Of a stretch of 64,000 nt of DNA, positions 436 to 60,300 are shown piece by piece. Every line of letters starts with the position of its first letter. Within the stretch, counting starts at the first letter, position 1. The position numbers were made by a program, and so were the translations under genes. The notes beneath the pieces were generated by a model that searched no databases, was not told the origin of the DNA, and worked only from the letters and a program-made list of their open reading frames with translations. Source of the stretch: Geosiphon pyriformis uo1 (lineage: Eukaryota > Fungi > Glomeromycota); NCBI GenBank assembly GCA_016748015.1, contig JAAOMT010000597.1, positions 124,001-188,000 of the forward strand. The letters are read 5' to 3'.

Positions 436-437
436 TT

Positions 438-453
438 TGGTGCTCTTTCACGG
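438..453 (+). promoter_or_regulatory. Primer binding site (TGGTGCTCTTTCACGG)
   Basis: TGG (complement of tRNA CCA) 2 nt after the LTR end; same motif at 57341. Priming tRNA not identified. Confidence 0.8.
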
Positions 454-480
454 AAACAACACAGCAAAAACAAATTCAAA

Positions 481-2153
481 GTGGCAACCACACCAGACAC
501 AACAACTCTAGAGTACTACCAGTCAATTTACACCCACTGCAAGCAAAGATTCAACATTCCAGACGGAATTGAAGTTGTCAAGAAATCAGTATACCAATAC
601 ATTGAAAACCACATCAACAATTATCTTTTTGGAAATTACAATATTTCAGAAGTTAGAAGCAACCTTTATAATAATTTAGCACACTATTTATAGTTGGGAA
701 CTGAAGACCTTAACAATAAAACACTTGCCACTTACTTTCAAGAACTTAATTTTAACATTATCAAGTACTGTGAAGAAACATATCCAGTACAGTCTCAATA
801 CTCTATTGATTTTGAATTGGAAACAGAAACAAGCAACAAAGGCAAACACAAATTAAAGCAATACTCAAAAACCACCCCAAATACTCCAATACTACCAAAA
901 ACAATTGCCAAACACTTACAAACACCTAAACAAGGAACAAGTTCAAAACTCCCACTCACCATCACACCTTTTCCAGCTTTACTTGCACAAGCACAAACAC
1001 TTAATTCACTCTTAAATTGATTTGTGAGACCAGAAGATTTTACATCACTCAGAAATCCCACCAGACAGCAAGAACCCCTTCAAACTAGTTCCAATCTTCT
1101 TGATTTTCTAGCTGAGAATCAAAGTGAACACTTTGAGACAACAGTGAACGAAGAAAACAACTCTGAAATAACTGAAAAAAAATCAATAGACAGTGAAAAC
1201 AAAGAAGACAAAATGACAGCATACATCACAAAAATTCCTGAATTTAATGGAGAAAACATTGAGACTAGTCCCCAAGAATGGCTCAATCAAGTTACTAAAG
1301 CTGGATATGCAAATGGATGGAATGCTGCCAGAATGTTAAGAACAATTTCCTACTTTCTCAAAAGAACAGCAGGAGAATGATTTGAAAACTTGGCCACTCT
1401 ATTCAATGATTGAGACACTTTCAAAGCAGCCTTTCTTGAACAGTTCACTGACAATAATACCTCTATCACTCTTTGAAATCGGTTTTGCAATATTAAACAA
1501 GAATCCTCCGAATCTGTTATGACTTATATTGGGAAATTTAACAAACTTCTTAGACAAATTTGCCAACTCAAAACAAACAATTATTATTCCGATGCTCAAA
1601 TCTTGGATTAATTTATCACTGGTCTAAAAGATAAACTAATTAAAAAGGTTTACCCACATGCCCCAGAAGATTTAAACTCTGCCATACAGCATGTGAAAAG
1701 ATACAAAATGGCCATGGAAGAGGCCAATCGCACAAAACTTGTGAATTTGGCAATTGGAGAAACCAGCTCAGCAGCTAAGGAAAAAATTGACCAACTCACA
1801 AAGAAGTTTGAAAATTATTTCACCAATCAACAACAACAACAACTCCAAAGATATCAACCATCTCAAAGACAAAATTAAAATAACTTTGCACCACTTTCTA
1901 ATAACCAGCCTCAGAATTGCCATTACTGTGGAATCTCTGGCCACTGGAAAGAGATTGCAGAAAGCTACAACAAGACCAACAAAATAAGAGTAATCAACAT
2001 TATCCTCCACCACAGCAATTTTATTATCAACCACCACTACCAGCTTACTATCCACCAAGACCCCAATACCAAAATAATTATTATCAGCCCGCCCTACAGC
2101 CAATCCAACAGCAATACCAACAACCACCCACACAACATTATCAAGTACCTGCT
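481..2153 (+). pseudogene. gag: Gag (N-terminal extension, retrotransposon capsid domain, CCHC zinc knuckle, Q/P/Y-rich tail), multiple stops
   Basis: KIPEFNGE..SPQEWL...ANGW capsid-like motif from ATG 1213; knuckle C-H-Y-C-G-I-S-G-H-W-(fs)-RDC at ~1918-1958; stops explained by C>T or G>A changes. Confidence 0.88.
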
Positions 2154-2361: not shown

Positions 2362-3349
2362 TGTTACCAGACGAAATTAGAAATATTATTTAGCATGAAA
2401 TTATTGTTATAATTCCCATTATTAATTAACATATATTATCGTTTCAAATTATTATTTATTATATTAGCAAAATGTCCAAAATTATCATTTAATTAATAAC
2501 TCAATATGTATATGACACAAATGTAACCTAATTGCAATGATCAATCATGCAATACCCCGAACTATGTAACATTCAAAAAGTTCACCGAAATTTGTAGAAA
2601 TTTGCCAAAATAATTGATAGTTCACCAAAATATCTAATAGTTCGCAGAAATAACTTGTAGTTTGCCAAAATGTATTTTTAGTTCAGTGAAATTGTAGAAA
2701 ATAGCAAAGTTCGAGTTCACAAAATAGTGTTATAACAAATTGTATAAAAGAAAAGTGTCTCTCTTCGAGAAAATGTATCTTACTTCAGATTTAATAATTA
2801 GAATCATTCTTTACACACAAAAACAAAATAAATATCATATAAATTCAAAAAGCCAAATTCTTAAATTATTTCCCTTGAAATTAACCAATTCCTACTAACA
2901 GTTTTGAAATTGATTAGCTACCAATTTCAGTAGACTGTTAAAACACTTCCAGGCCTAGATCTGAAACAACTTCTATAAATCATCAGTTTTACTTTTTCTT
3001 TTACATTTCTTTTATTCTCTTTCTTTTCTTATTATAAATCATTTGGGTAGCCTACAGACGAGAATTCCTGTAGAAGAGTTGACTTTCACAGCAAAGTAAC
3101 TACACATTTTTAGTGAGCTTCCAGATGAGCAATTTCTGGGAAAGGGTTGACATTTACTACAACATAACTATACAAAATAACTGGCATGGAATTGGTCATT
3201 CCACTTATAAGCCTAGCAGTTCAAATTATAAGAGATAATTTGATGATAAATTCAGTTACTAAAGGTTCAACCACATCCAAAAAATGTGAATTGACAGCAA
3301 ACAGGTATCAACAACATTTAAGAAAAGAGACCAAAAACCTTTAGTAATA
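2362..3349 (+). repeat. 3' LTR of family A element (988 bp), preceded by PPT at ~2349-2358
   Basis: Starts TGTTAC, ends GTAATA (decayed GTAACA); homologous along its length to 56358-57338. Confidence 0.92.
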
Positions 3350-6300
3350 TTGTTGTTATTACCAATTTGAATGGAGCTGGAACTAGTGTTTTTGTCATTG
3401 TCATTGTTGGAGTTTGAATCAGGATCAAATAGTAATTCTGATTCTGATGTGCAGCTGCTGATTGGTTTCTCTTCTTCTAGAATTATGTAGATCATGTGGA
3501 TCAGTGGATTGTAAATGAGGTCACACTCATTACAATATTGAAAGTCATATGGGATTAAGCAATGGTCACATAATCAAGTGTTTAGCTGTGCTAACCACTC
3601 TTTCTGTTCCTTTCTGGTCAGTGCTAAATTTTGATAATGTTTGTGGAAGTCTTTTGAATTGGTTTCAATGTTAAAGAAAGCATCTGGGTTTGGGACTAGA
3701 ATAATGTTGACTGGTTCTGGAGGATTGTTCTTGATTTCCAAGATTTTGCTGGATGTGGTGCCTTCTACTTTGGCATTTACCATCCACCAAATTTTGTCTT
3801 TGTCGTGTGGGTATCCGTCCAGATGAGAGATCACTCGGTGCCAAGCGGCAGTTATTGGCATGCCACAACTCATCCAGTCACTGATGAGGATTATGTACTG
3901 GCATGAAGTGTCACACATTCCTTCTTGACCAGGAATGTCGTTCCACATTCTTTTGTTGAACAACTGTTTGCCACAAATGAGACATAGTTCATTGTTCCAC
4001 TTGCCTTGTCTTTTTGGGTAGCCATACCATTTGTGGTGGCAAGACTTGCAATAATAGTGGATTCACATTTATTAATCTTCATCTGGTGCGACTCAAGCTC
4101 CCATGGAAGAAAGTTTCTTCTCACAATTTTTGTATTTGAGTGGTATGTGTGGTGGTTGTGACAGTGGCTCATGGATGGAGTACAAACTTGTCCAGCCATT
4201 GGTTACTTGAGATGTGTTGGTGATTTGTTCAGGTGGCTTGTCTTCCTTTTTTTCTTTTTCTTTTTCTTTCCAGCTGGTTGTTGGTATGAATTCACTTTCA
4301 TTATCTTCGTTCCAAGTGTCAATAGTGGTTTCCCAGGTATGTTCTTTTTTTTGCTTTTTTTTTTCATGGTCATCTTCGTTCCAGGTGAGTATAGACAGCA
4401 GTTCATTGTGGTTGACGTCAGCCCATGAAACCTGATACACTTCCTATATTGGTTTCTTTGCTTCCTCCTCAAATTCGATCAGTGGCTGCAAGTTGGTTGG
4501 TTTAAAGTAGCCACATACTGCTGGTGCCCAAGTATGTTAACTATTTTGGCTCAGTTGGAGCTCTTGCATTGTCCAATCAAGTACGGCATTTGTTTTAAAT
4601 AGCCAATCATTTCCAACAAGAGCTTAGTACTGAGTGGCTTCCATCACAAAGCCTTTAATGGGTACTATGATGCCATTAATTTTGATAGATAGGTTGTCTA
4701 TTTCGCCTATTGGAGTTTTGGTCACTCCATCAGCTATAATGATTCTTGCACTGGCAGTTCAGTCAACTCGGCAACCTAATTAATCTATGAATTGCTTTGT
4801 TATGATGCTGCCAGCTAATTCACTATCTAAGATCAGTTTGATGACATGGCCATCAATTTTGGCATTTGTATACATGGTGGTAATTGGCTTCTCTTCAAAA
4901 GCTGCTCTACTGAACAACGGGATTTTGATTGTTTCTTCCAAGTCAAAGAGAAAGATGGCTGCAAGCAATTTGTCATTGGTGACAGTTGCTGATGGAATGT
5001 TATTGGTAAGTGCTTGTTGTTGGTTGGATCCTGAATTGTTGGTGGTGACATCTTCTGGGGTAACCAGGAGACTTAAATAGTTCTGGGAATTTGGGTTTTG
5101 GGTGATATTGGTACCTGAATTCTGAGAACGCGATCCTGATAGTGCGTGAGAAGAACTGGGGATTGGTTGGTAGACAACCATCGCTGATCTCCAGTTTTGT
5201 TGTGTTATTCTTGGTCTTTGGGTTCTGTGTTAAGGTAAGTTTTGAGGTGGTGTTTAAATGGTTTGAGGTTGATAGATTACTTGTGACTGCAGTTGATATA
5301 TTACAGATGGCTGCAGTTGATATATTGCTGGTGGTTACAGTTGATAAACTGGGGTCTGATATACTGGTGCTTGATAAATTGGCTGCTGTGTCATTGGCAG
5401 GTAAGTGTTTTGGTATTGATCTTGATTTTAATATTGATTCTGAGTTTGGAATCGAGGATTGGGGTTTTAATGTTGATTTCCCGATCATTGGTTATAAGTA
5501 TTATAGTTGGCTCTTATGTGATCTTGTTTACCACAGTTGTAATAGACACGTGTTTCCTACTGCCATAGTTGATTAATTGATAATGATGGATGTGCTTGAT
5601 TTTGGAAATGATTGGCATTTCCCTGATTACTGCATTTTTGGAGAGGTTAATAAATGAACTGATAGTTGTTAGCTAAGTATCCCTCAATTTTTTGATTGAT
5701 GGTATTACTGATTTGCTTCAATTTGGAATCCAAATCAGATCATCCATTTATTACTAAATTTACAGCTTGAGCATAGTTAGCTTCTAGCTCAGCTGATTCA
5801 AAATCTCTGGCATGTGTGACTATGGCTTGAAGGTTGGCTGGGTGTAATGGGCATACGTGTTGCAAAATGCTACTGCACAGGCCATGAATAAACTGGTTGA
5901 GGATCTGGGGTTCTGTAAAATACACGGCATCAATGACTTGAATTTGGCATAAGACTTTATAAAAGCATCCTAGGTATATTGTGACTGCTTCAGTATTATT
6001 CTGTTTGATGGTGGTAAAAGTATTGGCTAAACGATTAATACTGTTATTATTGCTAAAATATTCCAGAAAAGCAGTTTTGAATTGTTGGAATGTTTGTAGT
6101 TTGGTGGCTAAACTCTGGTACCAAGAATTGGCAGTTTCTTTAAGAAAGTATGGTATCACCTGTAGGGCTCTAGTATCATCCTAATTGTTTGCTATGATGG
6201 CCTTAAAGACATCATTGATCTATGCTTGAGTGTTGTTTTCTTCACCAGTTAAGTTTTCTAACTTTACAATGGGTGTGTAGGCCATTTGGTTTACATTTAG

Positions 6301-8326
6301 TTGTTGTGGTGGCTGCTGTAGCAGTTATTGTTGCAGTGGTGATTGCTAAGATGGTCCTTATGGCTGATAGATTTGTGAATTCGGTTGTTAAGGTGGCTGC
6401 TGAATGGGTTTGACTATTGGATCAATTGGTAGATGATCAATGATGATATTTGGAGGTACATTTGGCTGATTAATTAAATTGGGGTTCTAATTGTTTTGAT
6501 TTTGCTGAGTTTTAATATTTGGAGTTTCAATTTCTGGATTTTCTATGTTTGAATTTTGTGGAGTTTGAATGTTCGGGGTTCCAAATTTCGAGTTTTCTGA
6601 AATCAGGTTTTGGTAAGTGAATCCTTGATCTTTACTTCTTTTCTCTTCTTTCTTTGATAATTCTCATAGAGTAGTGGCTCCGAAATTTGGTTGGGGTAGT
6701 GGTAATCAAATTTCTGATGGCGTTGGGGATCGTAATTTAAATCCTTCAAAATACGCGCCATATGGTCCTAGTAAGTCTTCTTTCTATTGGTTGCTTTGGA
6801 ACTGAAATCTTCCAAATGTTGATATTGCATTTGATGTAGATGCGTCTGCTGATAAAATGTTGATGGTGCTTCCAAGTATGTAGTAATATGATGGAGCAGT
6901 TGGTGATTCTACTCTGTGTTTCTTCCAACTAGGTAACTGTATTTTTTTTGGTGTTGCTGCTGGTGTTTGTATTCTTCCTTTATCTTTGTCTGCATAGGTA
7001 ATGAAAAATTGTTGTTGCATGTATCTTTCAATGGTTTGATTGATTTTTTTGATGATTGGGGCGAAACTGTGATTTTTTGGTAAGCTGGTGTGTTGAAATA
7101 ATTTTTTATAGAAATTTTCTCTTGTTGACTCAATATTAACGGTTCCTTCTAAACAGTTTGTGATTTTATCATTAACGTAATAGTTAAAAGCTGATTCGAC
7201 TGGATAGTGATTACTGTTTAATCTTAATTGTTGGCTGTATTGTTGAAACAAGGATTTTGTGAATCCTAAGTGGTTGGCTCCTATGTTTTCTGATTCTGTC
7301 ACTTTTAGATTTGTGTTGGTACTGATTCTCTGTAGGATTATACCTTACAGGAAGCACCAAATGTTATAGGTGGTGTCTTTGGGGTTCTGAGTGAATAACA
7401 AACCTGTAACTTGGTACGCAAAGTGATTGGTGATGATAATCTGAAGATATTTTATCTGAAGGTTTTCTAATCAAGTTCTTTGTATAATGGACAGAGATTC
7501 AATGGTAACAGTTTATCAGTAATTTTCTGAAACCATAGTTTTGTCAATTGCTTGCTCAGCTTGATGGTTGATGATTCTCCTGGTATAATATCCTTTGTAA
7601 GTGTATACCAATGCTGTTTTCTGACGTCAGTTCCTCCATAAGTTCTTCAAGAATATGTATTGTTTAAGCAAGTTTATTCCTTCGTAAGTCCTCCAAGAGT
7701 AAGTATTGTTAAGTAAGTTTTATTCCTCCGTAAGTCTTCCAAGAGTAAATTTTTTAATCAAGTTAGCAGACAACAAAAAAAATAAAGAAAAAATAAAAGA
7801 GAAAATAAGAAATAAGCCAAAGTGATTTGCAAGTTAGTATCCTGTTAATAACTGTGATCAAGAGCTATTGTTCCAATATGGTTAAGTATCTATTACTATC
7901 AACATGAAGTGTTGATAGTGAAGAATGAATTTAATATAGCAAATAATTATTTATTTGAGGATTGTGGTAACTAAGCTAAGAATTCTTGGTGTTGATTCTG
8001 TTTTTTCTGCTTCTAACGCTACTGCTATATATACATATTTAAGATTTCTTAATTTTTCAATTCCTTACAACAGAAATCCTGGGATTTCTGGAATCCTGCA
8101 ATTTCTGATGAGAGGAATCCTGCAATTCTGGAATCCTGCAATTCCTTGCCAGAGAATCCTGAAACTCCTGGAATCCTGCAATTCCTTGCCAAAGAATTCT
8201 GAAACTTCTGGAATCCTGCAATTCCTCTGAGAGGAATTCTAGAATTCCACATTTATTATGTCTACTTCTAATTGGCTAATCTCTACTTGCTAATAATAAT
8301 ATACTTCCTCTATTCTATAAGTAATA
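3350..8326 (-). mobile_element. Ty3/Gypsy element family B: 5' LTR, PBS, gag, protease and Cys-rich region; interrupted at 3349 by the family A element
   Basis: On the minus strand: LTR end TAACA, then TTTGGTGCTTCCTGTAAGG. Gag from GTG 7302, capsid from ATG ~6285 (MAYTPIVKLE), knuckle ~5505-5550, protease LILDSELAGS ~4810-4840, Cys-rich region 3480-4150. Confidence 0.88.
7362..8326 (-). repeat. 5' LTR family B (965 bp)
   Basis: TGTTAT...GTAATA termini on +; homologous to 13177-14010 and 15009-15857. Contains a 3x ~46-bp repeat (~7631-7750), a TATA-like run ~8026-8035 and a GGAATCCTGCAATTC array ~8074-8250. Confidence 0.88.
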
Positions 8327-11300
8327 CTAGTTCACATTGGTACAGCTGGTAGTTCTGTTCTTTGGTCATCAGCCCAAGAAAGCTGATAGATTTCGATGGC
8401 TGGTAGTACTGGATTTTCCTCAAATTCGAAGATAGGTCTTTGGTTAGTGCTGGGTTTTTGGAAGTGGCCACAGGTGGCTGGAATTCTGGTCTGGTGGCCA
8501 TTATAATTGATTAAAAGCTCTTGAATAGTCCAGTTTAGGGTGGTGTTGGCTTTTGTTAACCAGTTATTCCTTACTAATGCTTGATATTGTGTAGCATCCA
8601 TTACTAATACTTTTGTAGGTATTACTATGCCGTTAATTTCGAAAGGAAATGAGTCAATTTTGCCATAAGACAGCTTTGTACTTTCATCGGCTGTTATGAT
8701 TTGGGATGTTGTAGTACAATCAACTTTGAAACCCAGTTGGTTTACTAGTTGAAGTATTATGATGCTTCCAGTAGATCCGCTATTTAAGATAAGTTTGATT
8801 GGGATATTGTTTACAGTAGCTTTTGTATACATAGCAGTGATTGGGTGTTTTTTGTTCAATGTTGCTCCACTGAACATAGCCTTGTTTTCCTCTAATTTAA
8901 AAGAAAAAATAGCTGTGAGGCTACTATCTTCAGTGGCAACTGCTGGTGATATTGTTTGGCTCAATTTGTTAGAAGAATTTTTGGTTCTGTTTATGTTTCT
9001 ACCATTATTGTTTTTGATGATCAGATTTTCCAGTATATTAAGGTAAGTTTGTTAATAATTTTGGTAGTTTGGATTGGTTTGCTGACTGGTTTTGGCACAG
9101 TTTGGATTCCTCTGGACCAATGCGTTCTGGTTCCATATGGGCTGATTTCGGGGCTCAAAATGCCAATTCAGGTTGGCTATCATGAATTATTGCTGGTAAG
9201 TTCTTTGATTTTGATATGTGGTAGAATATTGGCATAGTATTGGCGTGTACTGGTTTTTGAGCATTTGGGGTGGTGCATAATAATTATTTTTATGTGTTTC
9301 CTGCATCATTCACGTTTGATATTAACTAATTAAATGTTCTATGCATTTGCAAAAATGGCAGACGTGTGTTTCTGTTCTGAATTCTTGGTGTAATGAGCAA
9401 TTATTTCGACTGTTGCTGACTTTCTGGCTGTGTCTTTGGGGTGGTTAGTATGTATTTTTTTTTAAATTTGAGATGAGGTAATTTTCTATTTTCTTAGAGA
9501 GTTTCTCCCCTAATTGTGTTACTCTTTTTTTTAATGTTTCTGTCTTATTTTTCTCCATTACCATGTTAACTATTTGACTATGATTAGCTTTTTTCTCAAC
9601 TGATTCAAGGGCTTTGGTGAGTGTAATGGCTTCTGGTAAAGAATTAGAGTGGACAGAGCATACTCTTCCTAAAATGCTGTTTTTTAATCCTCTAATAAAC
9701 TGATTTAAAACCTGAGGATCAGTGTAGTATCCTTGTTTAATTGCTTCAATCTGATGGCAAATTTGATTGAATCGAGCAAGATATTGGGTAACAGTTTCAC
9801 CAGTACCTTGCTTGATTGTATTGAATTTGTTCTGTAGTTGAATTATGGCATTTGAGTTGCTAAAATACTCCAGAAGTGCATTTTTAAATTTGGTGAAGCT
9901 CGTGAGTTTTGTTTCTAGGCTTTGATACCATAAGTTGGCTGTGTCTTTCAGGAAAAAAGGTAATGTTTGAATTGCTCTTTGGTTGTTCCAGTTATTTGTC
10001 TGGATGACTTTTTGTGCTTTTTTGAGCCATATGTGCACGTTCATTTCTTCTTTTTCTCTTGAGAAATCTGTTAGTCTTGCAATGTATGGTGTGGCTATTT
10101 TGTCACCGTTTTCTGTTAGTGGGCTTATTGGTCTAAGAGGAGGTGGAATGATATTTCTTTGAGTGTTCCTAAAGGTGGCTTCCCTTATATCCAGTTCTTT
10201 CTCTTGATCACAAGTTTCTTGGTTTCTGGACTGGCTGCTTGTTCCAGTGACCAGTCTTGTGATTATTTTTTCACTGATCTCTTTTTTGGATTTTGATTCA
10301 GACTCCTCTTCATGGTTTTCAAAACCTGTTCCAAATTTTGGTTGAAAAAGAAAGTTTTAGAATAGTGATAAATATTCTCCTGTAATTGGTATGTCTCTCC
10401 AGTTACATTGTTTAATTTTATCAATATAACTAGAAGTTCTTGGCATTTGTGGAGTTGATGTTGATGATGATGCAGCTCCTAATGGAATTTGTATCTTATT
10501 TTCTGGTGAAAAATGGTATGATTTATTTTCTGGTGAATAAATACATTGTTTTTTTATTGATTAAGTGACAGTTTTTTTTGGTGTTTGAGCAGGTATTCCT
10601 AGTTTTTGCTGGTTACTTTCCTGATTAGTTTCTAAATTTTCTTTGGTTTTGTTGGCACATTCCCTAATGTTTTTTGTAAATATTGAAAAATTTTTGTTGG
10701 TGTATTGCTCAATTTTTCGATGGATTTTGACAATAGTTATGGCTATTACTGCTACTTCCTTTCTAAGTTTTGCATCATGTGGTTCTTCTTTCTTTCCTAT
10801 ATAATAATTTATTCTGGCATTAATATAATAAGTGAGGGCAGATTCTGCTAGACAACACCCTCTTGGTAATCCAAGATCATTTTGATTTTGTGTGTAAATA
10901 GCATGGCAGAATTTAAGAACAGTAAGGTTAGGGATTTTTGTTACCACTTTTGTCTCTTTTTTTTTAGCAATAAATTATTGTTAATTATTATTTTCTTTTT
11001 GATTTTCTTTTTTCATAAGGTTTACCAAATGTTATGGGATGGTTTTCTTGGTATATTTAATTGCTGATATTCCATTTTAATTGCAATCAGTCTCTTGTGA
11101 GTTCCTCAATTCTATTTGTGTGATAATGTCACTGTTATACTGAAGACTTTCTCTTTAATGTTATGATGTAAGTTATTTCTCAATTCCTAATTGTTGTGTG
11201 TGTTTATGTACTCCTTCTCAGAGACTGAACTGAAATCTACCTACTGTTTGGGGTCTTTTCTAAGGCTATTCTTGCAATTGCCTGATGTGTTTCTCTAATC

Positions 11301-11905: not shown

Positions 11906-13176
11906 ACATCAAAAACAACTGCCAAACACTTGTAAACACCTAAATAAGGAACTAGTATCAAATTACCATTTTCTATTACACCATTTCTAATTTTACTTGC
12001 TTAATCACAAACACCAAATTCACTACTTATCTGTTTCTCAAGACTAGAAAATTTTCAGTTATCTAAAAGTCCTACTCAACAACAAAAACCCATATCAATT
12101 AGCACCAATATTATTGATTACTTACAGAAAAACAAAAGTAATCATTTAGAGAACTTGAAAAGTAAAGAAACTAAATCAGAACAGGAAGAAATCACAGAAA
12201 ACAAAGAAAAAATGACAATTGCTTATATTGCAAAGATTTTAAAATTCACTGGTGAAGATAATAATACCAGTCCACAAAAATGGCTTGACAAAGTCCAGAA
12301 AGTAAAAGATACAAATGAATGAAATGCAGCAAGAATGCTTAAAGCAATCCCATACTTTTTCTAAGAAACAGCAGAAAAATGGTTTAAAAACTTGGATGCA
12401 CCTTTTGAAAACTGGCAAGCATTCAAAGATACTTTTTTACAACAATTTACTGACAATAATACATTTATTATCCTCCAAAATTGGTTCCAAAATATCAAAC
12501 AAGAACCAAGTAAATCAGTTATGACCTACCTAGAGAAGTTTAATAAACTTCTCAGAAGAATTTGTCAGTTGGAAACCAATGAATATTATTCTGATGCCCA
12601 AATCTTAGATCAATTCATTGCTGAATTAAAAATAAACTCATAAAAAAAGTGCATTCATATTCACCTGAAGATTTGGCCACTGCTATCTAATATGCAAAGA
12701 ATTATGAAATAGCTATAGAAAAAGCCAACTACACAAAACTTGTGAATCTTATTATTGGAGAAACCAGCTCAACATCTAAAGAGAAAATTGACCAACTCAC
12801 AAAAAAGGTTGAAAACTATTTTACCAACCAACAACAGCAACAAACACAAAGATATTAGTTATCACAATAACAAAACCAAAACAACTACTCATTATTATCA
12901 AACAGTCAAAACCAAAGTTGTCACTATTGTGGAATTTCAGAACATCAAAAACGAGACTGCAAAAAGCTACAAAGAGACCAACAAAACAGGAGTAATCAAC
13001 ATTACTCTTTAACACAGCAATCTTATTATTAGCCTCCACTACCAGTCTACTATTCTTCGAGATTCCAACAGCAAAACAATTACTATTAGTCTGCTTTACA
13101 ACAGCAATATCAACAACTTTTACCAATCCAATAGTATTAACAACTACCTACACAACAATATCAAATACCAGTCTGA
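11906..13176 (+). pseudogene. gag: Family A gag fragment bounded by family C LTR and family B LTR
   Basis: Colinear with ~893-2155 and ~57796-59066; capsid ATG at 12212; CCHC knuckle ~12919-12960. Confidence 0.87.
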
Positions 13177-14010: not shown

Positions 14011-15857
14011 GTACATAGGCCATCAATACTAGTAGTTGTTGTTATTGTTATGGTTGTGGTTGCTGTTGAAGTTGTTGCTAAAGTGGTGGTTGTAGCTGTT
14101 GTTGTTGCTGTTCAGCAATTGGTGCAACTGATGGTAGATTGATCACAATTACTGAAGATAAGTTTTAAGAAACAATAGGAGCAGAGTTTAGATTGTTTTG
14201 ATTTTACTAAGTTAGAATAATTGGGTTTTGAATTTCTGGATTTTCTAAGATTGGATTTTAATAATTAAATTTTTGATCTTCATTTTTCTTTTTTCTTAAG
14301 TCAGTTATTTTTCAAAGACTAGTGGCTCTGAAATTAAGTTGAGGTGGTAGTGATCGAAATCCTGATGGTGTTGGTAATCACAATTTAAATTCTTCAAAGT
14401 AATTATTGTAAGTTTCCAATAAATTGGCTTTTTCTTAGTTGCTTTGGAATGTTATTTTTACTCATAGTATTTTCATGGTTGATGTGGATATACTTGCTAA
14501 TATTATGTTGATTGTACTTCCTAATATATGATAATATGATAGGTGAATGGAAGAAACTACTTTTGGTTTCTTCCAAGTAGGTAGTTGTATTCTTTTTGGT
14601 ATTCCTGCTGGTGTTTGTAGTTTTTTTTTATCTGCAAAGATAATAAAAAATCTTTGTTGTGTGTAATTTCCAATTTCTCTATTTATTTTTGTAATTGTTG
14701 GTGCAAACAAATGGTTTGAGGACATTGTAATGCTTTGGAATAATTCACTGTTGAAATTGTTAAGAGCAGTTTTTAAATCTTCTTTGGCTTCTAAGTATGA
14801 TTTGATTTTTTTATTGACATATAAATTGAAAGCTGATTCTATTGGCCAATAATTACTTGTTAATCTGAGATGATTTTTATAATGCTAAAATAAGAATTTT
14901 ATAAATTCTAAATGGTTTTTTCCTATACTTTCTTGGTCTGTCACTTTTCTGAATGATGGTTGTTAATGCTAGTTTTTTGTTGGATTATATCTTACAGGGA
15001 GCACCAAATATTATAGGTAATTATTTGGAGTCTAAAAACAAATAACAAATCTGTAACTTGATACTTAATAAGTAATCTAATAGTTAATATCTCAAGATTT
15101 TGATTAAGTTTTTTATATAATGAACAGAGATTTAATGTTGAGATTTTGTTGTAATGTTTCTAGTTTCTTTTCCAACCTGAAAGTTGGTATGTGTTGTTGT
15201 CTGTAGCTTCTCAGAATATATATTCTGTTAATTTCTTTCTTAAGTTAATAACTAGTTTTTTAGTAAGCTATCTCTCAATTTCGAGTGTCTACCCTTATTC
15301 TTGGGTCTTTTACCAGTCATATTTCTGACATCAATAACTCAGTACTTTAATCTTTAATCAATTAGTAAATAAAAAAATAAAAAAAAATAAAAAAAAATAA
15401 AAATAAAAAGATAAGCCAAGACAAAAAAGAGTTAATATCCTGTCAATAACTGTAATCAAAAGCTATTGGTCTAGTATAGTTAAGTATTGTCAACTATTAA
15501 CATGAATTGTTAATAGTAAAAAAATAGATTATAATATTTAATAAGTATTTTATTGATATTTTCTGTTTTTACTTCAAGTTATAAAATACTATCATATAAA
15601 GAAATAGGTTTGGAATTGAAACTAAAAGTTCTAAAACTAATGATTTTGTCTTTTTTTGCTTCTAATACTACCACTATATATACATAAATTCCATAATTTT
15701 CTTAGCCAGGAATCCTGCAATTTCTTTTATGAGAATTTTGTAATTCTGGAATCCTACAATTCTTCTGAAAGAAATTTTGGAATTTCATTTTTACTATATC
15801 TATTTTGATTGGCTAATTTATGTACTAATATATAATTCCTATATTTTATAAGTAACA
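14011..15857 (-). mobile_element. Second family B copy: 5' LTR (15009-15857), PBS, 5' part of gag
   Basis: Minus-strand PBS TTTGGTGCTCCCTGTAAG; gag from GTG 14944 homologous to 6280-7302; truncated just after the capsid ATG (~14023). Confidence 0.85.
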
Positions 15858-43324: not shown

Positions 43325-44363
43325 TTTGACCGAACTTATTTAATGACCACAAGAGCAAAACAAGATTTATAGAAACAGACACAAGAGATAAGTAAGCAAT
43401 GAAAAAAAAACTGCCGAGATTTTATAGATTTAGCTGTCCTTGCGGATGTGGTAATAAAAAAACTTACTTTCGCTATTAGTTTATTTTCAGGTTGGAATTC
43501 GTGCTCTTTATCAAACCCTTGATGCTATTTAAAAAGTTCTCGGGTTTGAGATTCAAGAGTAAGAATGAAATTCGGAAAGTTTGATTAGCGAACTAAAGAG
43601 TAATAGGTGCTGAGCTTTAATTTGAGAATAACAATTTTTTGTTAATTGTTTATCATTTTTTTTAGTTACTTTGAAAGCCATCTAGCTTTTGCCCAATAAA
43701 TTTTTTATTATAATATAAGTTAATTTATTTAGTTTTCAAAATGTAAAATATTTGGCATTGAGAATAAAAATTACAACAAATAAATAAGTCTTTAATAAAT
43801 AATAAATTAATTACAAACTTACTAATAAAAATTTTAAAGTTTTATTTTTCAATAAAAAAAACCAATTTTAAAACAATATTAAAATTCTTAATATTAATAT
43901 TAATAAAAATATTAAGATTTTTAATAATAATTATATATTATTTAAAAAAAACATTTTAAATTTATGCTATTTAAAAAAATAGTTTAAAAAATTTTGTTTT
44001 TTTAATTATATTATAAAAAAATTTATAAAACTAAAATTAAAAAAGTTTTTTATATTATTTTACAATATATATATATATATTTAATTATTATATAATTGCA
44101 ATTTATTTTGAACAAATTAAATATATACTTAATAATAAAAACAAAAAAACTTGTTTTTTATATAAATCTTTTTTAATAAAGAATTTTGAAAATTTAATTT
44201 TTATATAAAAATATACACACTCAGAATCAATGATTCTCATTTTTTGAGCAACAATGGTTCAGTTTTTTTCCAAGATAAATTATTTTTTTCTTTTTTTAAG
44301 CCTGTTGAGACTTAATCAGCAACAGTATCTTCTTATTCCAAGCCCATTTTATCACTTGTCAAA

Positions 44364-47300
44364 ATGGAAAACTTTCGTCCTCCTGAAAACCCATATGGGC
44401 CTCCACCGGCTTCAACAATGTCAACGCGTTCTAATTCGCCTTCTCAAAGGTCAAATTACAGTGAAAGCCAGCAAGAAAGTAGCAGGTCAGGCAATGTTAT
44501 AACCAGACGTTCATCAAGGCAATGGAGCCGCAGCAGTAATGAAGGAAGTGGTAACGGCACTTCAGTTTACGGGAACAGTAATCCAAGCAATAGAAGTTAT
44601 GGCCCTAGTAATTCAAACAATAGCGCTGTCAATTATGGAAATAGTTCGGGTGGATCAAGTTATGGTAGCTCACGAAATCGAGGAACTAGAAACAGTTCCT
44701 ATGATCGTCATTTACGAGATAACAAAGATTCGTGGAGCCAAAGACAACATCAACAAGACAGACAACATAGGAATTATCGTGACTCGGGAAATCACCGTGA
44801 TCGACACAGGGATGGATACAATTCGCGACAGTACAATCAAAAACATTATCGTTCATACCACGATAATTACAATGGCCATAGGCAAAATCGCAGAACAAAC
44901 GAAAGACCACCTTGGCATCAAAGTCATACCGGCCATCACTCACAAAATCAAAATAATGAACAGCCTCATCCGATGGCCCAACATCTTTCCTCACAACCTC
45001 TTCCTCCTAATCATCGTCTTCCTTCGCATCAACTTCATCCATCCCAATCTCAAACTAATTTTGAACTACAAAATCATTCGCATCAGCAACCAGCTCATTC
45101 ACATCAACATCCTAGTCAACTCAACCATCGACCAGCGCACCACGGACATCATCAGCAACATCATTATCAGCCATATCCACAACATCCTTGGATGACTGGA
45201 CCACAATCTTCAGCTACGGTGGCCCACGCACAAAACCAATCAACTCACGTATTATCAGGTACTCTTCACAATCATCAACCCCCACCACCAGGGACAAATA
45301 TTGCTCCACAATTAGCAACAGGACAGCCGGCTCAACTCGGGCAACATGGCCTTCATCCACCACATGGACCCCCAGTTGCCTCTCAAATTCCTCCTCAAAT
45401 GAACTTGTATTCTGAGCAGCAACATCATCAACAATCTGTTCAATTTCAAGGACAGCACCTATCTCAGATATCCACATGGGACCAGAATTCAGCCGCTGCT
45501 TATCATCACACACAATCATCTCTTTATCCACCTGAATCATATGAGTCTTTCGCTCCTCGATATTCTTATATGTCCGGCATAGATCCTGCTTATAATTATG
45601 AGCAGCCAATGTTAGAGATACCTCAATTGTCTGTTCCTACTCAACCACCTCAGCCTCCACAACCGCCTCAACCGCAGAATTCCATAGGGCAATCAATTCA
45701 AGAACAATATAATCAGTTGATAGCCACAATTGATCCTAGCGAACCCCCTGTAACGTCAATTGAGATTTCTGAGAGTTTGCCTGAGAACCAAGAATCAACT
45801 GTTCAGGAAATGGATATAGAAAAAGAGCCATCAACTCTTCAGCTTGGCACGCTGACACCTCTGAACCAAAAGCCGACCGAACTTTATGAAAAGCTTGTAC
45901 AAGTTGGAGAAGGCACTTATGGGTTAGTATCAACTTAAAAAAAAAATTTATCTGTATGATTTTCGTCAATTTGCGGTTACACTATTCGATAAACAGCAAA
46001 GTATATAAAGCCAGAAACAGTGAGACTGGAGCAATTGTCGCTCTTAAACGAATTAGAATGGAGACCGAAAGAGAAGGGGCGAGTATCAGTCCAATAATTC
46101 ACATAAGTAATGGAACAAGCTTAACAATTTAATTGATATTTTTCATTCAAATTTGTATGAATTAGTTTCCAATAACCGCCCTACGAGAGATCAAAATCCT
46201 TCAAGACCTTGATCATGAACATGTTGTCAAACTTTTGGAAATTATGGTTGTCAAAGGTAGGCAATTTATTTGTTGCTATTTATAATTCTGTCCCTTAATC
46301 GGCTGTATCGCCTATTTTTTATTTTCTGAAATATAGACTAATCATAATAATCTCTTCAGTTTTATTTACATTATTCGAAACTTATCCAATTTTTTTATAA
46401 TAGGAAGCGTTTACATGGTCTTCGAGTACATGGATCATGATCTAACTGGGGTGCTTTCAAACCCTCAAATCAAATTTGAGCCGCAACATATCAAGTGTCT
46501 TATGAAACAGTTACTGGAAGGAATTGGTTTTCTTCACAGCCGTGGAATTTTACACCGAGACATAAAAGGTATGGACTTCAGATGTGATATGGTTTAAACT
46601 ACTTGATTAAATTTTCTTTTTGTATATATCCTTGTCATTAGGGTCAAATATTCTTTTAAATAACTGCGGCCAACTGAAATTGGCCGATTTTGGCCTTGCC
46701 CGCCAATTTCAGCCTAGGCGGATGCACGATTATACCAATAGGGTAATAACCCTTTGGTATAGACCACCTGAACTATGCCTGGGCTCCACAGTTTACGGGC
46801 CTGAAGTAGACATATGGAGTGCAGGGTAGAAAAAAGCCCATATTCATTCATTCTTGTAAACAAAAATCTAATACTATTGAAATCATATACTTTTAGCTGC
46901 ATTATGGTGGAGTTGTTCACGGGAAAGCCTTTGTTTCAGGGAACTGACGAGATCACTCAGTTGGAGGCCATTTACCAGCTTTTGGGATCGCCGTCAACTC
47001 ATACCTGGCCGGCAATGGCTGAATTGCCTTGGTATGAGTTGATCAGGTTTGAGAAGTTGTGGGAAAGCAAGTTTGAGGAGGTTTATGGGGAGTAAGTACA
47101 AATAGATCTATTGCATTTAGGAAATTTTCTCTTCGTTAATTTCTTATTTTCTTAGGATTTTGTCGCCGAAAGCTTTGGAATTGATTTGTACCTTGTTGTC
47201 CGTGAATCCTACGGACCGCCCGACAGCGATGGAGGCTCTCGAGTTGCCGTATTTCACTGCGGAAGAACCTGAGGCGTGCTTGCCAGAAAAGTAGGCTTTT

Positions 47301-49299: not shown

Positions 49300-49698
49300 G
49301 ATCTTCTTAAAAATACAAATTAACAATACATCTTTATTTAAAAAACCAAAACTTGTACATAAATTATTCTCTTGGAAATTAATCATTTCTGACTAATATA
49401 AAATTGATTAGTTGCCAATTTCAGTAGACCAGATTAGTTTTTTTTCACTTTATAATATTATTAAATTATTATTTTTTTATTTATGTTATTTTTGAAATTG
49501 TTGTAAAAGTTGATTTTTACTGTAATATAATTACATTAAAAGTTATTGGCCATTTTATTATAAGTTCAATATGAAACAGATCCAAAGTATAAAAAAATAA
49601 TTTGAAAATAAATAGCTTATTAAAGGTTTAATAGCTTCTATCAATAACAGCATTTACAATAAATTCAACATTAAAAAATAATTAAAACTTTAATAATA
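49300..49698 (+). repeat. Ancient, heavily AT-shifted family A-like LTR relic
   Basis: AAATTGATTAGTTGCCAATTTCAGTAGAC and further colinear blocks match 2860-3349; ends AAACTTTAATAATA like the LTR end. Confidence 0.7.
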
Positions 49699-52789: not shown

Positions 52790-53520
52790 AATTTACTCTT
52801 ATTCTGATTGACATTGCCATATTCATAGCAATAACTTAAATTGTACATTGCAGTAAAACTCCCTGTATCAACTGGTTTTTGATATAATTTGACACCTTCA
52901 CTTTTGTTTTATTGATGTCTTTGTCATACTTATAGCAATAACCTAACCAATTCATTGCACCAGGATTTCCTACATCAATTATGATTTGAAAAAATTTGAC
53001 CACTTCACTTATGTCCTGATCAATGCATTTGCCATTAAAATAGTAATAACCTATCTAATTCATTGCCCCAGAATCTCTTACATCAGCCGCTTTTCGATAC
53101 AATTTGATAGCTTGATCTGTGTTCTAATTGACGCATTTGCCATTAAAGTAGCAATGTTCTAATTAAGTCATTGCTTTAGAATTTCCTGTATCACTTGCCT
53201 TTTGATACAATTTAACAGCTTGATCTGTGTCTTGATTGACACCTTTACCATATTGATAGCAATAATCTAATTGAGTCATTGCTTCAGAATTTCTTGTATT
53301 AACAGCTTTTTGATATAATTTGATCTCTTAACTTTTGTTCTAATCAATACTTTCATCATGCTGATAGCAATAACCTAAATTGTTCATTGTAGCAGAATTC
53401 TCTATATCACTTGTCTTTTAATATAATTTGACAGCTTAACCCATGTCTTAATTAACACTTTTGCTATAAAAGTAGCAATTTTCTAATTTATCTATTGCTG
53501 CAGAGTTTCCAGCATTTAAA
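52790..53520 (-). pseudogene. SEL1-like repeat array (about 6.5 x 36 aa), decayed cargo
   Basis: 108-bp period; e.g. NSEAMTQLDYCYQYGKGVNQDTDQAVKLYQKASDTG, the SEL1 consensus A..LG.CY..G.GV..D...A...Y.KA...G. Confidence 0.92.
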
Positions 53521-53584
53521 CAGAATAGATGGTGAAAATCTAATTCAAGATTTTTACATTTTTAAAAAATACCTCCAAACAGCC

Positions 53585-53920
53585 ACAACAATTAACATGG
53601 CAATAATAATTCAGTTTGCTTACTTCCTAATAGTCTTAACAATTAATATAACAATAATAATCAGGTTCACTTATCTTTGGATGGTCTTAGTAATCAATGC
53701 AACAATAGTAATTCACTTACTTTTAGACAGCTATAACAATTCACACAAATATATTAATTAAATTTGCTTATCTCTAAATAATTATGGCAATCAATATGAC
53801 AATAATAATCAGATTCACTTATTTTTGGATAGCATTAACAATCAATGTAACAATAATAATTTACTTTATTTACCTTTGGATAGTTATAGCAATTATTACA
53901 GCAATGCTAAATAAATTTAC
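53585..53920. repeat. Degenerate ~50-bp tandem repeat inside the pogo element
   Basis: Recurrent CAAT(C/T)AA..(G/A)CAATAATAATCAG.TTCACTTA..TTGGATAG units with a higher-order ~200-bp duplication. Confidence 0.65.
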
Positions 53921-55360
53921 TTAGTGGCTTGGGCAATTATTCAATATTTGCCACCAAAACAAAGCAAAGCATGCTATTTTACACCAATTTGCTTGTTGTA
54001 ACTTTTAAAATTATACCAATAAAATAATAAATTAATGAATAAAACAAACAATGATAGATTAATATAAGTCTTATTATTACAATACTTAAATACAAAATAG
54101 GATTGACATTTTAAAATAATATTTGGAGCATTTTTTATAATCTGAGGTACCTTATATGTCTGATTAAATATGAAATAACATCTAATGTTCATATTTAATA
54201 TTATATAATTATAGTGTAACTATAAAGAGTGGAATTACTTATATTCTGCTATTATATTTGTGGGGATAGAGACTATAAGGAAATATATATAGTAAAAGTG
54301 ACTATAAGAAGATAATATTATATATAAATGGCTTTGGTTTTTAAAAAAATGTGATAATAAAAAGATAATAACTATAACCAGAAGAACTATAGAGAGAGTT
54401 CACTGTAGTTCTAAACTTAAATTTATATAATTATATTATTAATACATAAATTTTATTAATTTAATACTATTTTTTAATATTTTTAAAAATTAACACTAAT
54501 TTTTTATATTAAAATTTAAATATTATACTTTTATACAATATAATACAAATTATTATTAAATTTATTATTAAACAGATTTTATAAAATTAATAATAATAAA
54601 ACTTAAATAATAATCAAAAAATTTTAATATACAATACAATCTTAAAACAATTTTTTATAAATATTAATATCTTTATTATTATTACTAAGAATTTTTATGG
54701 TTTTTCAATACAAAAATTACAAAAATTACTATTAAAATTATGTAAAAAAGACTTATATTATTATATTTAATTAACAAAATTAGCTAATAAACAAAAAACA
54801 AAAAATTAGTAATTAGTCAATGATAACAAAAAAATATAGCACAATTTAATTATTTAACAAAAAATTTTTAACAAACTAAGAAATACTAATAAAAATTATG
54901 AATTAATGTATATAATTTAATAATAACAGTTTTTATTATACTTTAAGATTTTTATATGCCCTTATTTATACAGTCTAATATTCTAAATCTATAATTACTA
55001 TTCAAAAATAGTTACTAAAAAATACAATTAATTAATTTATATCTGATTGTATTAATCTAAAGTTCTAATATTTAGTTTGGTTTAGTTCAAATTCAATTAA
55101 ATTACCAAACTGAACCAAATTTAAACAAAAGATTTGGCAAAATTTCAAACTTGAACTTAAACCAAACTTAAAATTACTAAACTTAAACCAAACCTAAACA
55201 CATATAACAAGTCTAGTTTAAGCTTGGTTTAAAGTTCATAAACATGTTCAAATTTAACTATTAAAAATATTATATTATACTATATTATTATTTAATTTTT
55301 TTTCAATAATTCCTGCATTTATAATTAAAGATATTGTGCTACTTTTATAATTTTAAGTAT

Positions 55361-56357
55361 TGTTACAGGTAATTATTTGGGTGGGTAAAATAAATAACAA
55401 ATCTGTAATTTGGTGCTTAATTAATATAATAGTGTTAGTATTTAAAGATTTTCATAATCTGAAGGTTTTGGTTTGAGTTCTTTGTATAATGAACAGTAAT
55501 TTAAGTATTGTTTTATCTATAGTCTCTTAGAATTGCAATTCCATTAAATTTTTTTCTTAGCATAATAGCTGGTAATCTTTTTGATAAGCTATCCTCAATT
55601 TTATAAATGTTTTATTTTTGTTTCACAGGTCTTTTACTAATTCTTTTGACATCAGTAACTTCATACATTAATCTTTAATTAATTAGTAAAATAATAAACA
55701 AAACAAAAAACAGAAAAAAAAATAAAGAGATAAGCCAAGGCAAAAAAAAGTTAGTATTCTATCAATGGTCATAATCAAGAGCTATTGGTTTAGTGTAGTT
55801 AAGTATTAGCAATTATTAACATAAATTATTGATAAAAAAAAAATGGATAGCACTAATAATAATTATTTTTATTGATATTTGATGTTTTTACTTCAAGTCA
55901 TAGAATATTATTATATGAAAAAATGAATATAGAATTGAAATTAAAGATTTTAAAACTAAGAATTCTGTTTTTTTTGTTCCTAATACTCTCATTATATATA
56001 TATATTTGATGTTCTATGAGATTTCACATATTTTTAAACAATGCTCCATAATTTTTCAAGCAATGCTCATATTGCTAAGCAATATCTCATAATTTCTGAT
56101 AATGTTTTATATTGCTAAGTAATATGTTCATGTGCTAAATACTATTCTTCTATTGGTCTATTTTTTATCTGTTTTTTTTACTACTTTTCTTGTATCTTTT
56201 TTTTATGAGTAATATTATTTTTTTCTTTAATATTGAGCTCTGTTAAAATTTTTGTTTAAGATTAATTCTATTACTTCTCTTTCTAAAACTGTTTGTTCAA
56301 CTTTGGTTTTTATGTTTTCTATTTGTAAGTTGTTTATTCTTCTCCATTGGTTAATAG
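55361..56357 (-). mobile_element. 3' end of a further Gypsy element (D): 3' LTR 55361-56214 plus decayed PPT and tail, cut by family A LTR at 56358
   Basis: 55361-56000 is homologous to family B LTRs. On the minus strand ACAGAGCTCAATATTAAAGAAAAAAATAA precedes the LTR, matching ACAGAGCTCAGTCTTGAGGAGGAGATTA of family A with G>A decay. Confidence 0.8.
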
Positions 56358-57338: not shown

Positions 57339-60300
57339 TTTGGTGCTCTCTCATGAAAATAACACAGCAACAACAAATTCAAAGTGGCAATCATACCAAA
57401 TACAACAACTTTAGAGTATTACTAGTCAATTTACATCCACTGCAAGCAAAGATTCAACATTCCAAACAGAATTGAAGTTGTCAAGAAATCAGTATACCAA
57501 TACATTGAAAACTGTATCAACAATTATTTTTTTGGAAATTATAACATTTCAGAAGTTAGAAGCAATCTTTACAATAATTTAGTGCACTATTTACAATTAA
57601 AAACAGAAGACCTGAACAGTAAAATTTTTGCCATCTACTTCCAAAAACTTAACTTTAGCATTATTCAGTATTGTGAAGAAAAATACCCAATACAATCTAG
57701 ATATTCTATTGACTTTGAATCAAAAACAGAAACAAGCAACAGAGGCAAACAAAAACTAAAGCAACATTCAAGCATCACCCTAATCACCCCAAAGACACCA
57801 AAAATAACTGCCAAACACTTGCAAACTCCAAAACAAAGAACCAGCACCAGACTTTCACTCTTAGTCACACCCTTTTCAATTTTACTTGTTCAACCACAAA
57901 CACCAAATTCATCACTTATTTGTTTCTTAAGACCAGAAGATTTTCAGCCACCCAAAAGTCCTACTCAACAGCAGGAATCTATATTAACCAGCACCAATAT
58001 TATTGATTATCTACAAAAAACGAAAGTAATCATTCAGGAAACTTGGAAAGTGAGAAAACTGAATCAAAACAAGAAGAAACTACAGAAAACAAAAAAAAAA
58101 TGGCAACTGCTTATATTGCAAAAATTCCAGAATTTACTGGTAAAGATAATAATACCAGTCCTCAAGAATGGCTTGACAAAGTACAGAAAGCAGGAAATGC
58201 AAATGGTTAGAATACAGTAAGAATGCTTAAAGCAATTCCATACTTTTTCCAAGGAACTACAAGAGAATGATTTGAAAACTTAGAAAAATTATTTGGAAAC
58301 TGGCAAGCATTCAAAGATGCTTTCTTATAACAATTCATTGACAACAACACTTATATCACTTTCTGTAATCACTTTCACAATATCAAACAAAAAACATCTG
58401 AAACTATTATGATCTATCTTGGAAGATTCAACAAACTTCTTTAATGAATTCGACAATTGGAAACCAATGAATACTATTCCAATACCCAGATTTTGGATCA
58501 GTTTACAACAGGATTAAAGAACAAATTAATCAAAAAAGTTTGCTCACATGCCTCAAAAGACTTAACAACAGCTATTAGACATACAAAAAACTATGAAATG
58601 GCAATAGAAGAAGCAAACCATACCAAACTTGTGAATCTTGCTATTGAAAAAACCAGCTAAGCAGCTGAAAAAAAAATTGACCAACTTATAAAGAAGGTTG
58701 AAAACTATTTTACCAACCAACAACAACAGCAAAAACTACAAAAATATTAGCCACCACAATAATAAAACCAAAACAACTACTTATTATTATCAAACAGCCA
58801 AAACCAAAGTTGTTACTATTGTGAGATTTTAGGACATTGGAAACAAAATTGCAGAAAGCTATAAAGAGACCAATAAAACAGAAGTAATTAATGTTATGCT
58901 TTAACACAGCAATCTAATTACCAGCCACTATCACCAGTCTGCTATTCCTCAAGACCCCAACAGCAGAACAACTACTATTAGTCTGTTTCATAGCAGCAAT
59001 ATCAACAACCACTACCAATCCAACAGTATCAACAGCCACCTACACAACAATACCAAATATCTGTTTGAAGATTGGTTCAACATAATCAATTCACATCTCA
59101 AAATCAATTTCAGAATAACAACAACAAAATCAATCCAAATAACCAGTTGGTTCTCTGAAATTCTGGTCAGCAAAGACCCAATTACTCCCACACTCAACTC
59201 AGTTATCTTACAATGCCTGAAGAATTGGATTTTCAACAAACTGCACTTTTTGAAGATAAAGTTGCAGCACCAAGATCAAACTCTTCCAACAATACTATTC
59301 CACCAGCTTAAATTGCCCAAAATGCCAATCTCTTAAATATATTTTTATTTGAATTTGAAGCCAATAAATCATCATTTTTGCTTAGCAATGCAGCAGTCAA
59401 TAAACAAAAAGCAATTACAGCAATATATACTGAAGCTGAAGTTGAAGAAAAACCAATTTGGTTAATCTTAGACAGTAGATTAGCTGGAAGTATTATCACC
59501 TACCAATTAATACAACAGCTTCAAAGAACTGTTAACAGACCAGCCCAAACTGTCATTGTTACAGCAGATGAAATGAAAAAGACATCAGTAGAAGAAATTA
59601 ACAATTTCCCATTCATTATTAATGGAATTACTATTCCAGTTAAAGTTCTAGTTATGGATGCACTCCAATACTAAGCTCTCATTAGAAATAATTGGCTTCT
59701 CAAGGCCAATGTAAATTTAGATTGGGAAACCCAGGAATTGAAAATTTCATACCAAGGACAATACACCAGAGTATTTGTCACTTGTAGTACTTTTAATAAA
59801 AAATCTGAAAAAGCCTCAGTATTCGAATTTAAAGAAGAGAAAGAACTACCAGTTACTGAAACTTTTATGGCTCTTGGATCAACATCCAATTGGGCTGAGA
59901 AAACAGAACAAAAAATCTTTGAAAAGACCAGAAGATGGAATGTTGTTCAATACTCTACACCAGAACCAAAGAAACAACCACCCTATATTCCACTCAAATG
60001 CAGAGATTGTAAGAAGAAACTTTTATTAATAGAAGCATATATTTTTTCAAAAGAGAAATATGAAACTTGCATCTGCTACTTTTGCAAAGCATGCTATAGA
60101 AAACGATTTGGATATTCCAAAAAAAGTGAAAAATGGAACAACACTCTTTGTCTTACATGTGGAGATACATTACCAGAAGAATGCAACTGGATTGATGTTG
60201 CAATAAGAGGAAGAGTATGTGACCAAACCTGCCAATATGCCTTATCAATTTCGGAAAAAGTTAAAAGAGGAACACCTTTTGATGCAGCATACAACAGTGC

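Follow-up and report, generated by a model that had tools for sequence, protein, structure and literature searches.

MLV glycoGag is an N-terminally extended form of Gag that is thought to be a minor form (PMC5120145, PMC3542737). Like the elements described here, it combines an upstream in-frame near-cognate codon with a downstream Gag AUG. In the MLV case, as described there, the codon is a CUG, the extension comprises 88 residues with a signal sequence and the product is a type II membrane protein, whereas here, in a fungal retrotransposon, a GUG heads an extension of 244–339 residues that lacks a hydrophobic segment, and the capsid itself begins at the AUG. Human PEG10, a gag-like gene derived from a retrotransposon, is similar in that mutation showed an upstream in-frame CUG and an AUG to be both used (PMC2800197). 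According to that source, however, PEG10 is a domesticated host gene with a 34-residue extension, in contrast to the multi-copy, formerly mobile elements considered here, whose extension carries a predicted folded domain of 95 residues and a long ATG desert.

A non-AUG first start followed by leaky scanning to a capsid polyprotein is also described for ORFs I–III of rice tungro bacilliform virus, where scanning covers about 895 nt that contain only one weak AUG (PMC3542737). In that account the virus uses separate ORFs and an AUU reached by shunting, whereas the frame is fused here. Two co-terminal Gag forms from one LTR retrotransposon, as we propose below, are known from Ty1 (p22/Ty1i RNA; PMC5408680). 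Ty1, however, belongs to the Ty1/copia group and uses AUG starts, and its short form is reported to arise from a second transcript and to restrict transposition. A fungal precedent for a long N-terminal extension under purifying selection with a conserved near-cognate start is Neurospora cpc-1 (PMC5487733), although cpc-1 is presented there as a host transcription factor subject to uORF control. In our literature search, which covered papers outside subscription access, no such dual-start Gag was reported for a mobile LTR retrotransposon. Retrotransposon Gag is customarily annotated from the first ATG.

Element copies and families

The window, i.e. the whole 64-kb stretch of DNA that was analyzed, is eukaryotic and carries genes of the Sec7, CDC20-like and PAPS reductase types; self-alignment placed nested LTR retrotransposons in its first 16 kb and last 8 kb. 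The retrotransposons of families A, B and C are distantly related, decayed members of the Ty3/gypsy group. The hallmarks of the group are evident in copy A1 on the forward strand, with TG...CA ends, a primer-binding site (PBS) at 438 and a purine tract (2349–2358) before the 3' LTR (2362–3349). The 5' LTR of A1 is cut by the window edge; its 3' part (1–435, terminus GTAACA) is 92.7% identical to 2915–3351. The A1 PBS (438–455; TGGTGCTC...), which contains ACG where copy A2 has ATG, is presumably not of the tRNA-iMet type; no tRNA genes were found in the 64-kb window. Between its LTRs (438–2361), A1 contains gag alone and keeps the PBS and purine tract, as a gag-only unit or an internal deletion would. 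Its gag region downstream of the first ATG (1216–2164) comprises a decayed capsid, a CCHC knuckle (about 1918–1959) and a Q/P/Y-rich tail, the capsid being recognized by the Pfam family Retrotrans_gag (PF03732) in the colinear relatives P0014 and P0017. PF03732 was also found in copy A3, and both PF03732 and PF19259 scored above cut-off in copies B1 and C.

Copy A2 (57341–58102, forward) has its PBS at 57341, an out-of-frame ATG at 57353, the GTG at 57384 and the capsid ATG at 58100, followed by pol. The pol domains follow the Ty3/gypsy order of protease (59312), dUTPase (60908), RT (62017), RNase H (62620) and integrase (63137–63733), with the protease and integrase matches lying below the Pfam cut-offs. 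Copy A3 (11906–12214, forward) retains the 3' part of the linker and the capsid ATG at 12212. On the reverse strand, copy B1 (6283–7359) has its PBS at 7359, the GTG at 7302, an extension of 339 codons and the capsid ATG at 6285; copy B2 (14020–15006) has its PBS at 15006 and the GTG at 14944, and its extension is cut before the capsid; copy C (10096–11027) has a decayed PBS at 11027, the GTG at 10947, an extension of 283 codons and ATA at the capsid-start codon (10098).

Decay is chiefly C>T and G>A in all copies. Because TGG>TGA changes are frequent (sites 691–693 and 1018–1020 and many other Trp codons) and Glu>Lys replacements reach 10–25% outside CpG, the C>T loss is not confined to CpG. 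CG methylation of elements has been reported in the relative Rhizophagus irregularis (bioRxiv 10.1101/2021.03.30.436303), and LTR elements are given as 41.2% of the Geosiphon genome (PMC11952901).

Searches with the extensions returned Geosiphon pyriformis gene models alone: at least 120 for family A (the best 120 of 188), 61 of 61 for family B and 86 of 86 for family C. All 267 relatives named in this way, with 120 of the 188 family-A matches listed, are gene models of this species, which points to G. pyriformis, or a species very near to it, as the host. In a profile search, the best 150 of 272 proteins comprised known models and 120 new ones (32 of family A, 88 of family B). Scans for related loci gave 398 pattern matches in metagenomes and eight in viral contigs, of which none was confirmed in either set. 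The family counts used below rest on automatic gene models, which tend to begin at ATG and to steer clear of stops.

A GTG codon at the head of the extension

A preliminary description of this stretch had placed AAA-GTG shortly after the PBS at the 5' ends of five gag copies, and the codon was found at each of these sites (481 and 57384 on the forward strand; 7302, 14944 and 10947 on the reverse strand). The same 5' ends had been called intact, which does not hold: A1, B1 and C contain in-frame stops, A2 is frameshifted before the capsid and B2 ends before it. At the level of sequence, an in-frame near-cognate GTG is present 244–339 codons upstream of the Gag AUG.

Among gene models covering the start column, Val is found in 68 of 88 in family A (Met 15, Leu 5), in 30 of 44 in family B (Met 12) and in 61 of 69 in family C (Met 3); Ile is not found in any of the three. 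Additional unnamed relatives from the best 150 of the 272 profile matches agree, with Val in 24 of 27 (A) and 36 of 44 (B). Since G>A decay produces ATG from GTG but Ile from the other Val codons, the presence of Met and complete lack of Ile identify the codon as GTG. Only one of 32 other Val-majority columns shows a large Met share, the remainder changing to Ile or staying Val; GTG is therefore a rare Val codon in these elements, yet it stands at the start in all three families. The Met share of the start column is itself an upper figure, because gene finders favour ATG.

An ATG in the family consensus or in young copies would have spoken against a GTG start, as had been recognized at the outset. 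Both the family majority and the least-diverged copies carry Val, and copies with Met are no nearer to the family majority than others (p 0.25, 0.43 and 0.94). In a quick family-A tree of 83 rows, the 15 Met rows are scattered and require 15 changes (shuffled mean 14). We therefore rejected the existence of a young, ATG-starting subfamily; the Met copies look like separate decay events.

In A1, the candidate near-cognate start reads AAA-GTG-GCA (478–486, GTG at 481–483), with A at −3 and G at +4. This is the context described for non-AUG starts, which are reported to require a purine at −3 and G at +4 and to be generally accompanied by leaky scanning (PMC3542737). The context is strong and conserved: GTG is read in five copies and K-V-A is the majority at the start in all three families, despite extensions that are only about 20% identical, while the residues upstream differ. 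B1 and B2 carry A at +4 and are separated by a 5-nt gap directly before the GTG. Leader registers also vary within family A (61, 11, 8 and 9 other among 89 models), and slippage in A-runs after insertion could lie behind part of this variation. In the five decayed copies, no potentially stimulating hairpin about 14 nt 3' of the GTG beat shuffled sequences (z −0.8 to +1.3); such a hairpin acts as an enhancer and is not a requirement.

The extension as a conserved protein

The frame is open from the GTG through the capsid, and six family-A models cross from the start region to the capsid without a gap. A separate ORF0, parted from gag by a stop, was thus rejected, as extension and capsid share one frame. 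The extension comprises 244 codons in A1, so that the approximately 240 residues estimated beforehand are appropriate for this copy; those of B1 (339 codons) and C (283 codons) are longer.

The first 100 codons gave transversion pN/pS values of 0.09 in family A (five changes) and 0.33 in family B, based on subfamily copies, compared to 0.40 and 0.55 for the linker and 0.16 for the capsid. The non-coding LTR control (0.73, 0.23 and undefined) contained too few changes to serve. The extensions of families A, B and C are homologous, with hhalign E values of 6e-6, 5e-6 and 1e-15 at about 20% identity. Judging from these substitution patterns, the extension is under purifying selection.

Structure prediction, which had been suggested as a check, yielded a four-helix domain and a disordered linker. 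In AlphaFold2 models of the relatives P0099 and P0017, four helices span residues 7–100 (block pLDDT 66–93), with the first helix beginning at residue 7, while residues 105–241 have pLDDT below 50, indicative of disorder, and the capsid helices follow. On A1, the predicted N-terminal domain maps to 499–780 and the predicted in-frame linker, rich in S/T/P/Q/N and with an acidic end, to 781–1212, in keeping with the pN/pS values of both regions and with the linker composition. The four-helix domain had no significant match in Pfam, Foldseek PDB or BFVD (E 0.001), and the best VIA-align Z was 6.9; for a small helical bundle, a missing fold match shows little. Weak matches to the Pfam family PAZ_2 in 16 of 72 members (best E 0.0025) were not adopted. 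Relative P0182 matched Arc capsids alone among solved structures, and these weakly (E 0.1–0.5).

Hydrophobic, transmembrane or signal segments were not detected in the extensions of A, B or C (top 19-residue mean hydropathy 0.8–0.9), and Gly is absent from position 2. A membrane-anchored, glycoGag-like product was therefore rejected. The parallel to MLV glycoGag drawn in the preliminary description is for this reason limited to the logic of initiation and does not extend to the type of product. Taken together, a real and conserved coding extension headed by GTG is well supported by these comparisons.

The methionine at the capsid start

The first ATGs of the three family-A copies are located at 1213, 58100 and 12212, exactly at the capsid start, as had been noted before. 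In A1, the ATG (1213–1215) is in frame with the extension and corresponds to a Met column of the family-A models. Met occupies this boundary in 91 of about 108 models in family A (in two adjacent columns), 15 of 17 in B and 56 of 70 in C, where it lies seven residues ahead of the Pfam Ty3_capsid match; the ATA of copy C departs from its family in this respect. Its neighbouring residues differ among families, and the capsid AUG of family B carries C at −3. By these counts, the capsid-start Met would be the first original in-frame AUG.

Distribution of ATG triplets

In family A, the intervals 436–1212, 57361–58099 and 11906–12211 are devoid of ATG, as previously claimed. The ATG-free stretch of A1 extends over 999 nt in three frames (214–1212; 9.9 ATGs expected), and the ATG-free gaps of two family-A copies are the longest on the forward strand (1002 nt, from 211 to 1213, and 747 nt). 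Dinucleotide shuffles of A1 and A2 gave 7.4 and 6.9 expected ATGs, slightly below the roughly 10 per full copy estimated earlier, and reached zero in 1 of 2000 and 0 of 2000 cases, respectively. ATG is the most depleted of the 64 triplets in both intervals, and element-wide block shuffles produced a run of this length in 0 of 600 cases for either element. On its own, the A3 interval falls short of significance (0 vs 1.9, p 0.10). At the edges of the desert, the out-of-frame ATG at 57353 lies inside the A2 PBS, just outside the interval beginning at 57361, and A1 reads ACG there; the PBS of copy C holds an ATG at 11016.

Equal depletion elsewhere in the element had been named as an argument against the dual-Gag reading. 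ATG occurs at expectation in the capsid regions (15 vs 13.9, 12 vs 12.1 and 12 vs 13.7) and in pol (83 vs 88.3), but one shorter ATG-free stretch is found in the low-complexity, Q/P/Y-rich end of gag (1717–2163, 447 nt in A1, 0 vs 5.1; 12707–13175, 0 vs 3.5). Family-A models show the same regional difference in Met, with 7 of 25,495 residues in the extension vs 145 of 9560 downstream. We rejected a RIP-like loss of ATG as the cause of the desert, since the capsid regions of the same copies hold the expected number of ATGs and the replacement of Met by Ile in true Met columns amounts to no more than about a fifth. Upstream of the GTG, in the 3' ~575 nt of the family-A LTR, eight of nine ATG sites have an ACG or ACA as their counterpart in another copy, while four ATGs further upstream are shared; the original ATG-free stretch of family A was therefore probably about 1.3 kb long.

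Codon-order shuffles yielded zero ATGs in 0.18% of cases, and synonymous shuffles alone were not significant (P0 0.23). Codons for N, D, Y or H followed by a codon starting with G were found 4 times vs 10.7 expected in A, 4 vs 11.2 in B and 8 vs 11.1 in C; downstream of the extension, family C has 5 vs 9.7, such that the avoidance is clear in A and B but not in C. The desert arises mostly from the order of residues.

In families B and C, ATG is not significantly depleted in the copies as they stand (B1, 8 vs 11.2; B2, 5 vs 8.2; C, 10 vs 13.8). True Met columns alternate with Ile, and CpG-derived ones with Thr, Val or Ala. Six of the 10 ATGs of copy C fall on decay columns (by majority or an R/C/H pattern), three on sites where N, H or D precedes a G-starting codon and one on Thr/Met column 189. 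Ala codons of the C extension show G>A in 65 of 293 cases at four such N/H/D-then-G columns vs 23 of 397 at non-CpG columns, as CpG decay predicts. At column 189 of family C, Met (38) and Thr (35) are similarly frequent, with an excess of Met in one subfamily (17 of 21; nominal p 0.004, with 98 columns tested); at column 180 of family B, Met is the commonest residue (11 of 38). Among the eight ATGs of B1, the one at 7020 corresponds to Thr in the family, the one at 7172 changes at a CpG-like rate and the one at 6830 has C in 31% of the depth, while those at 6995, 6761, 6667, 6461 and 6296 were not traced to decay. The out-of-frame ATG at 6995, in weak context, may be original: T is present at the third position in both window copies, G>A is seen in 8 of 44, and no C variant occurs among the 40 of 47 rows compared. 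The earlier suggestion that the ATGs of B and C are deamination products thus applies to most sites but not to several, such as 6995. Because several B and C ATGs were not traced to decay, the desert, which is shown in family A, is for B and C one that we infer, with exceptions; likewise, the lack of any AUG between the two starts holds for A, and for B and C mostly after such reconstruction.

Two proposed Gag forms from one RNA

Based on these sequence features, we consider it probable, with moderate confidence, that weak initiation at the GUG combined with leaky scanning yields two Gag forms from one RNA. The transcription start would lie in the LTR, 3' of the last ATG that the copies share, and most ATGs now present in B and C would be products of CpG decay. 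A cap-dependent ribosome would meet the GUG first, and a minority of ribosomes would initiate there, giving rise to the long Gag; initiation at such near-cognate codons is reported to be about 2–30% (PMC3542737). The remaining ribosomes would scan a further 730–1020 nt to the AUG at the capsid boundary and produce the short Gag. A single account would in this way explain why the weak codon is conserved, why the desert spans every frame and why the first AUG lies where it does. More speculative than any other step is the role of the long form: it might be soluble, present in minor amounts and assembled together with the short form, its four-helix domain acting as an adaptor on a flexible tether where retroviral Gag has its matrix domain, and its dose might be set by the weak codon.

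The chances seem to us evenly balanced for the fuller picture, i.e. a Ty3/gypsy lineage expanded in Geosiphon in which a new four-helix adaptor sits on a scarce long Gag, the capsid-start Gag is abundant and the protein sequence of the extension has been shaped against AUG in all three frames across as much as 1.3 kb. If true, a mobile Ty3/gypsy lineage set the ratio of two capsid precursors by a weak start codon, a device already described in gammaretroviruses and domesticated PEG10. It would also expose a new helical Gag domain and account for the invented first exons in hundreds of Geosiphon gene models.

Other routes to one or two Gag forms have to be weighed against this proposal. The long Gag might be the only form initiated, at the GUG. 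The short form would then be a processing product, and the capsid-start Met would either have a structural role or mark the site of protease cleavage. Met is found at some retroviral protease sites, the residue sits exactly between the disordered linker and the capsid, and the elements encode aspartic proteases. We nevertheless regard this course as unlikely: it leaves the lack of out-of-frame ATGs in family A unexplained, the residues around the Met vary among families, and ribosomes that miss the GUG would reach the capsid AUG first anyway. It also appears quite unlikely that the long form stems from a true AUG created by splicing, either by joining the TG that follows AAG to an LTR exon with a terminal A or by way of an upstream ATG exon, with unspliced RNA giving the short form. 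In PEG10, a splice variant is described that provides an upstream AUG (PMC2800197). Splicing would account for the desert as well, AAG precedes the TG in all five copies and many gene models attach upstream exons near the GTG. However, AAG is a rare type of splice acceptor, AG dinucleotides lie nearer in the A-rich upstream sequence, and the modelled exons vary from copy to copy, the common family-A model starts reading ACG or ACA in other LTR copies.

Rather than by scanning, the short Gag might be made from a second, internally started transcript, as in Ty1 (p22/Ty1i RNA; PMC5408680), or by internal ribosome entry. Such a route would tolerate the possibly original ATGs in B and in one C subfamily, yet it provides no reason why family A should avoid ATG throughout the extension and the 3' LTR, and we judge it distinctly improbable. 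The prospects are poorer still for a long form started at another upstream near-cognate codon, for example an ACG that lies in frame within the family-A LTR (370), with the GTG being a plain Val codon. The A1 frame is indeed open for 36 codons upstream, where model P0096 reads through a stop, but leader registers vary, the other four copies have in-frame stops 7–15 codons upstream (some of which may be decay), and the GTG in three families would go unexplained. Finally, the extension might be untranslated, with AAAGTGGC acting as an RNA signal and the ATG-free stretch as a long leader. The motif lies 43–80 nt from the PBS start, and RNA signals are common close to the PBS; purifying selection, protein homology at 20% identity and a confident predicted fold largely refute this idea already, and we give it hardly any credence. 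Weak GUG initiation with leaky scanning thus remains our preferred reading.

Further features of the window

The nesting of elements in the first 16,000 nt can be followed from their boundaries. The A1 3' LTR ends at 3349 against internal sequence of B1, a B1 LTR breaks the protease region of C near 8335, and a family-B LTR cuts A3 at 13176. Away from gag, a partial family-B LTR is located at 55361–56004 (reverse) and a short piece of family-A LTR at 49311–49429 (forward).

The pol region of A2 contains two protease-like matches on the forward strand, an Asp_protease_2 match (59312–59671, E 0.0014) upstream of the dUTPase (60908–61147) and a spumavirus-type A9 protease match (61478–61747, E 4e-6) after it, just upstream of RT. 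From 58100 to 64000, the stop-free pieces from capsid to integrase lie mostly in one frame, with shifted pieces at 58905–59333 and 62017–62850, a pattern that would be compatible with one continuous gag-pol ORF as well as with a programmed shift. Long open stretches after the A2 protease (59675–60904, forward) and after B1 gag (3577–5491, reverse) showed no Pfam match. A stop-free frame of 540 codons with strong C skew and likewise without a Pfam match spans 44316–45938 on the forward strand, an imperfect palindrome of 134 nt (71%) is found at 43830–43963, and self-alignment revealed tandem-like repeats with periods of about 107 and 148 nt at 52805–53923.
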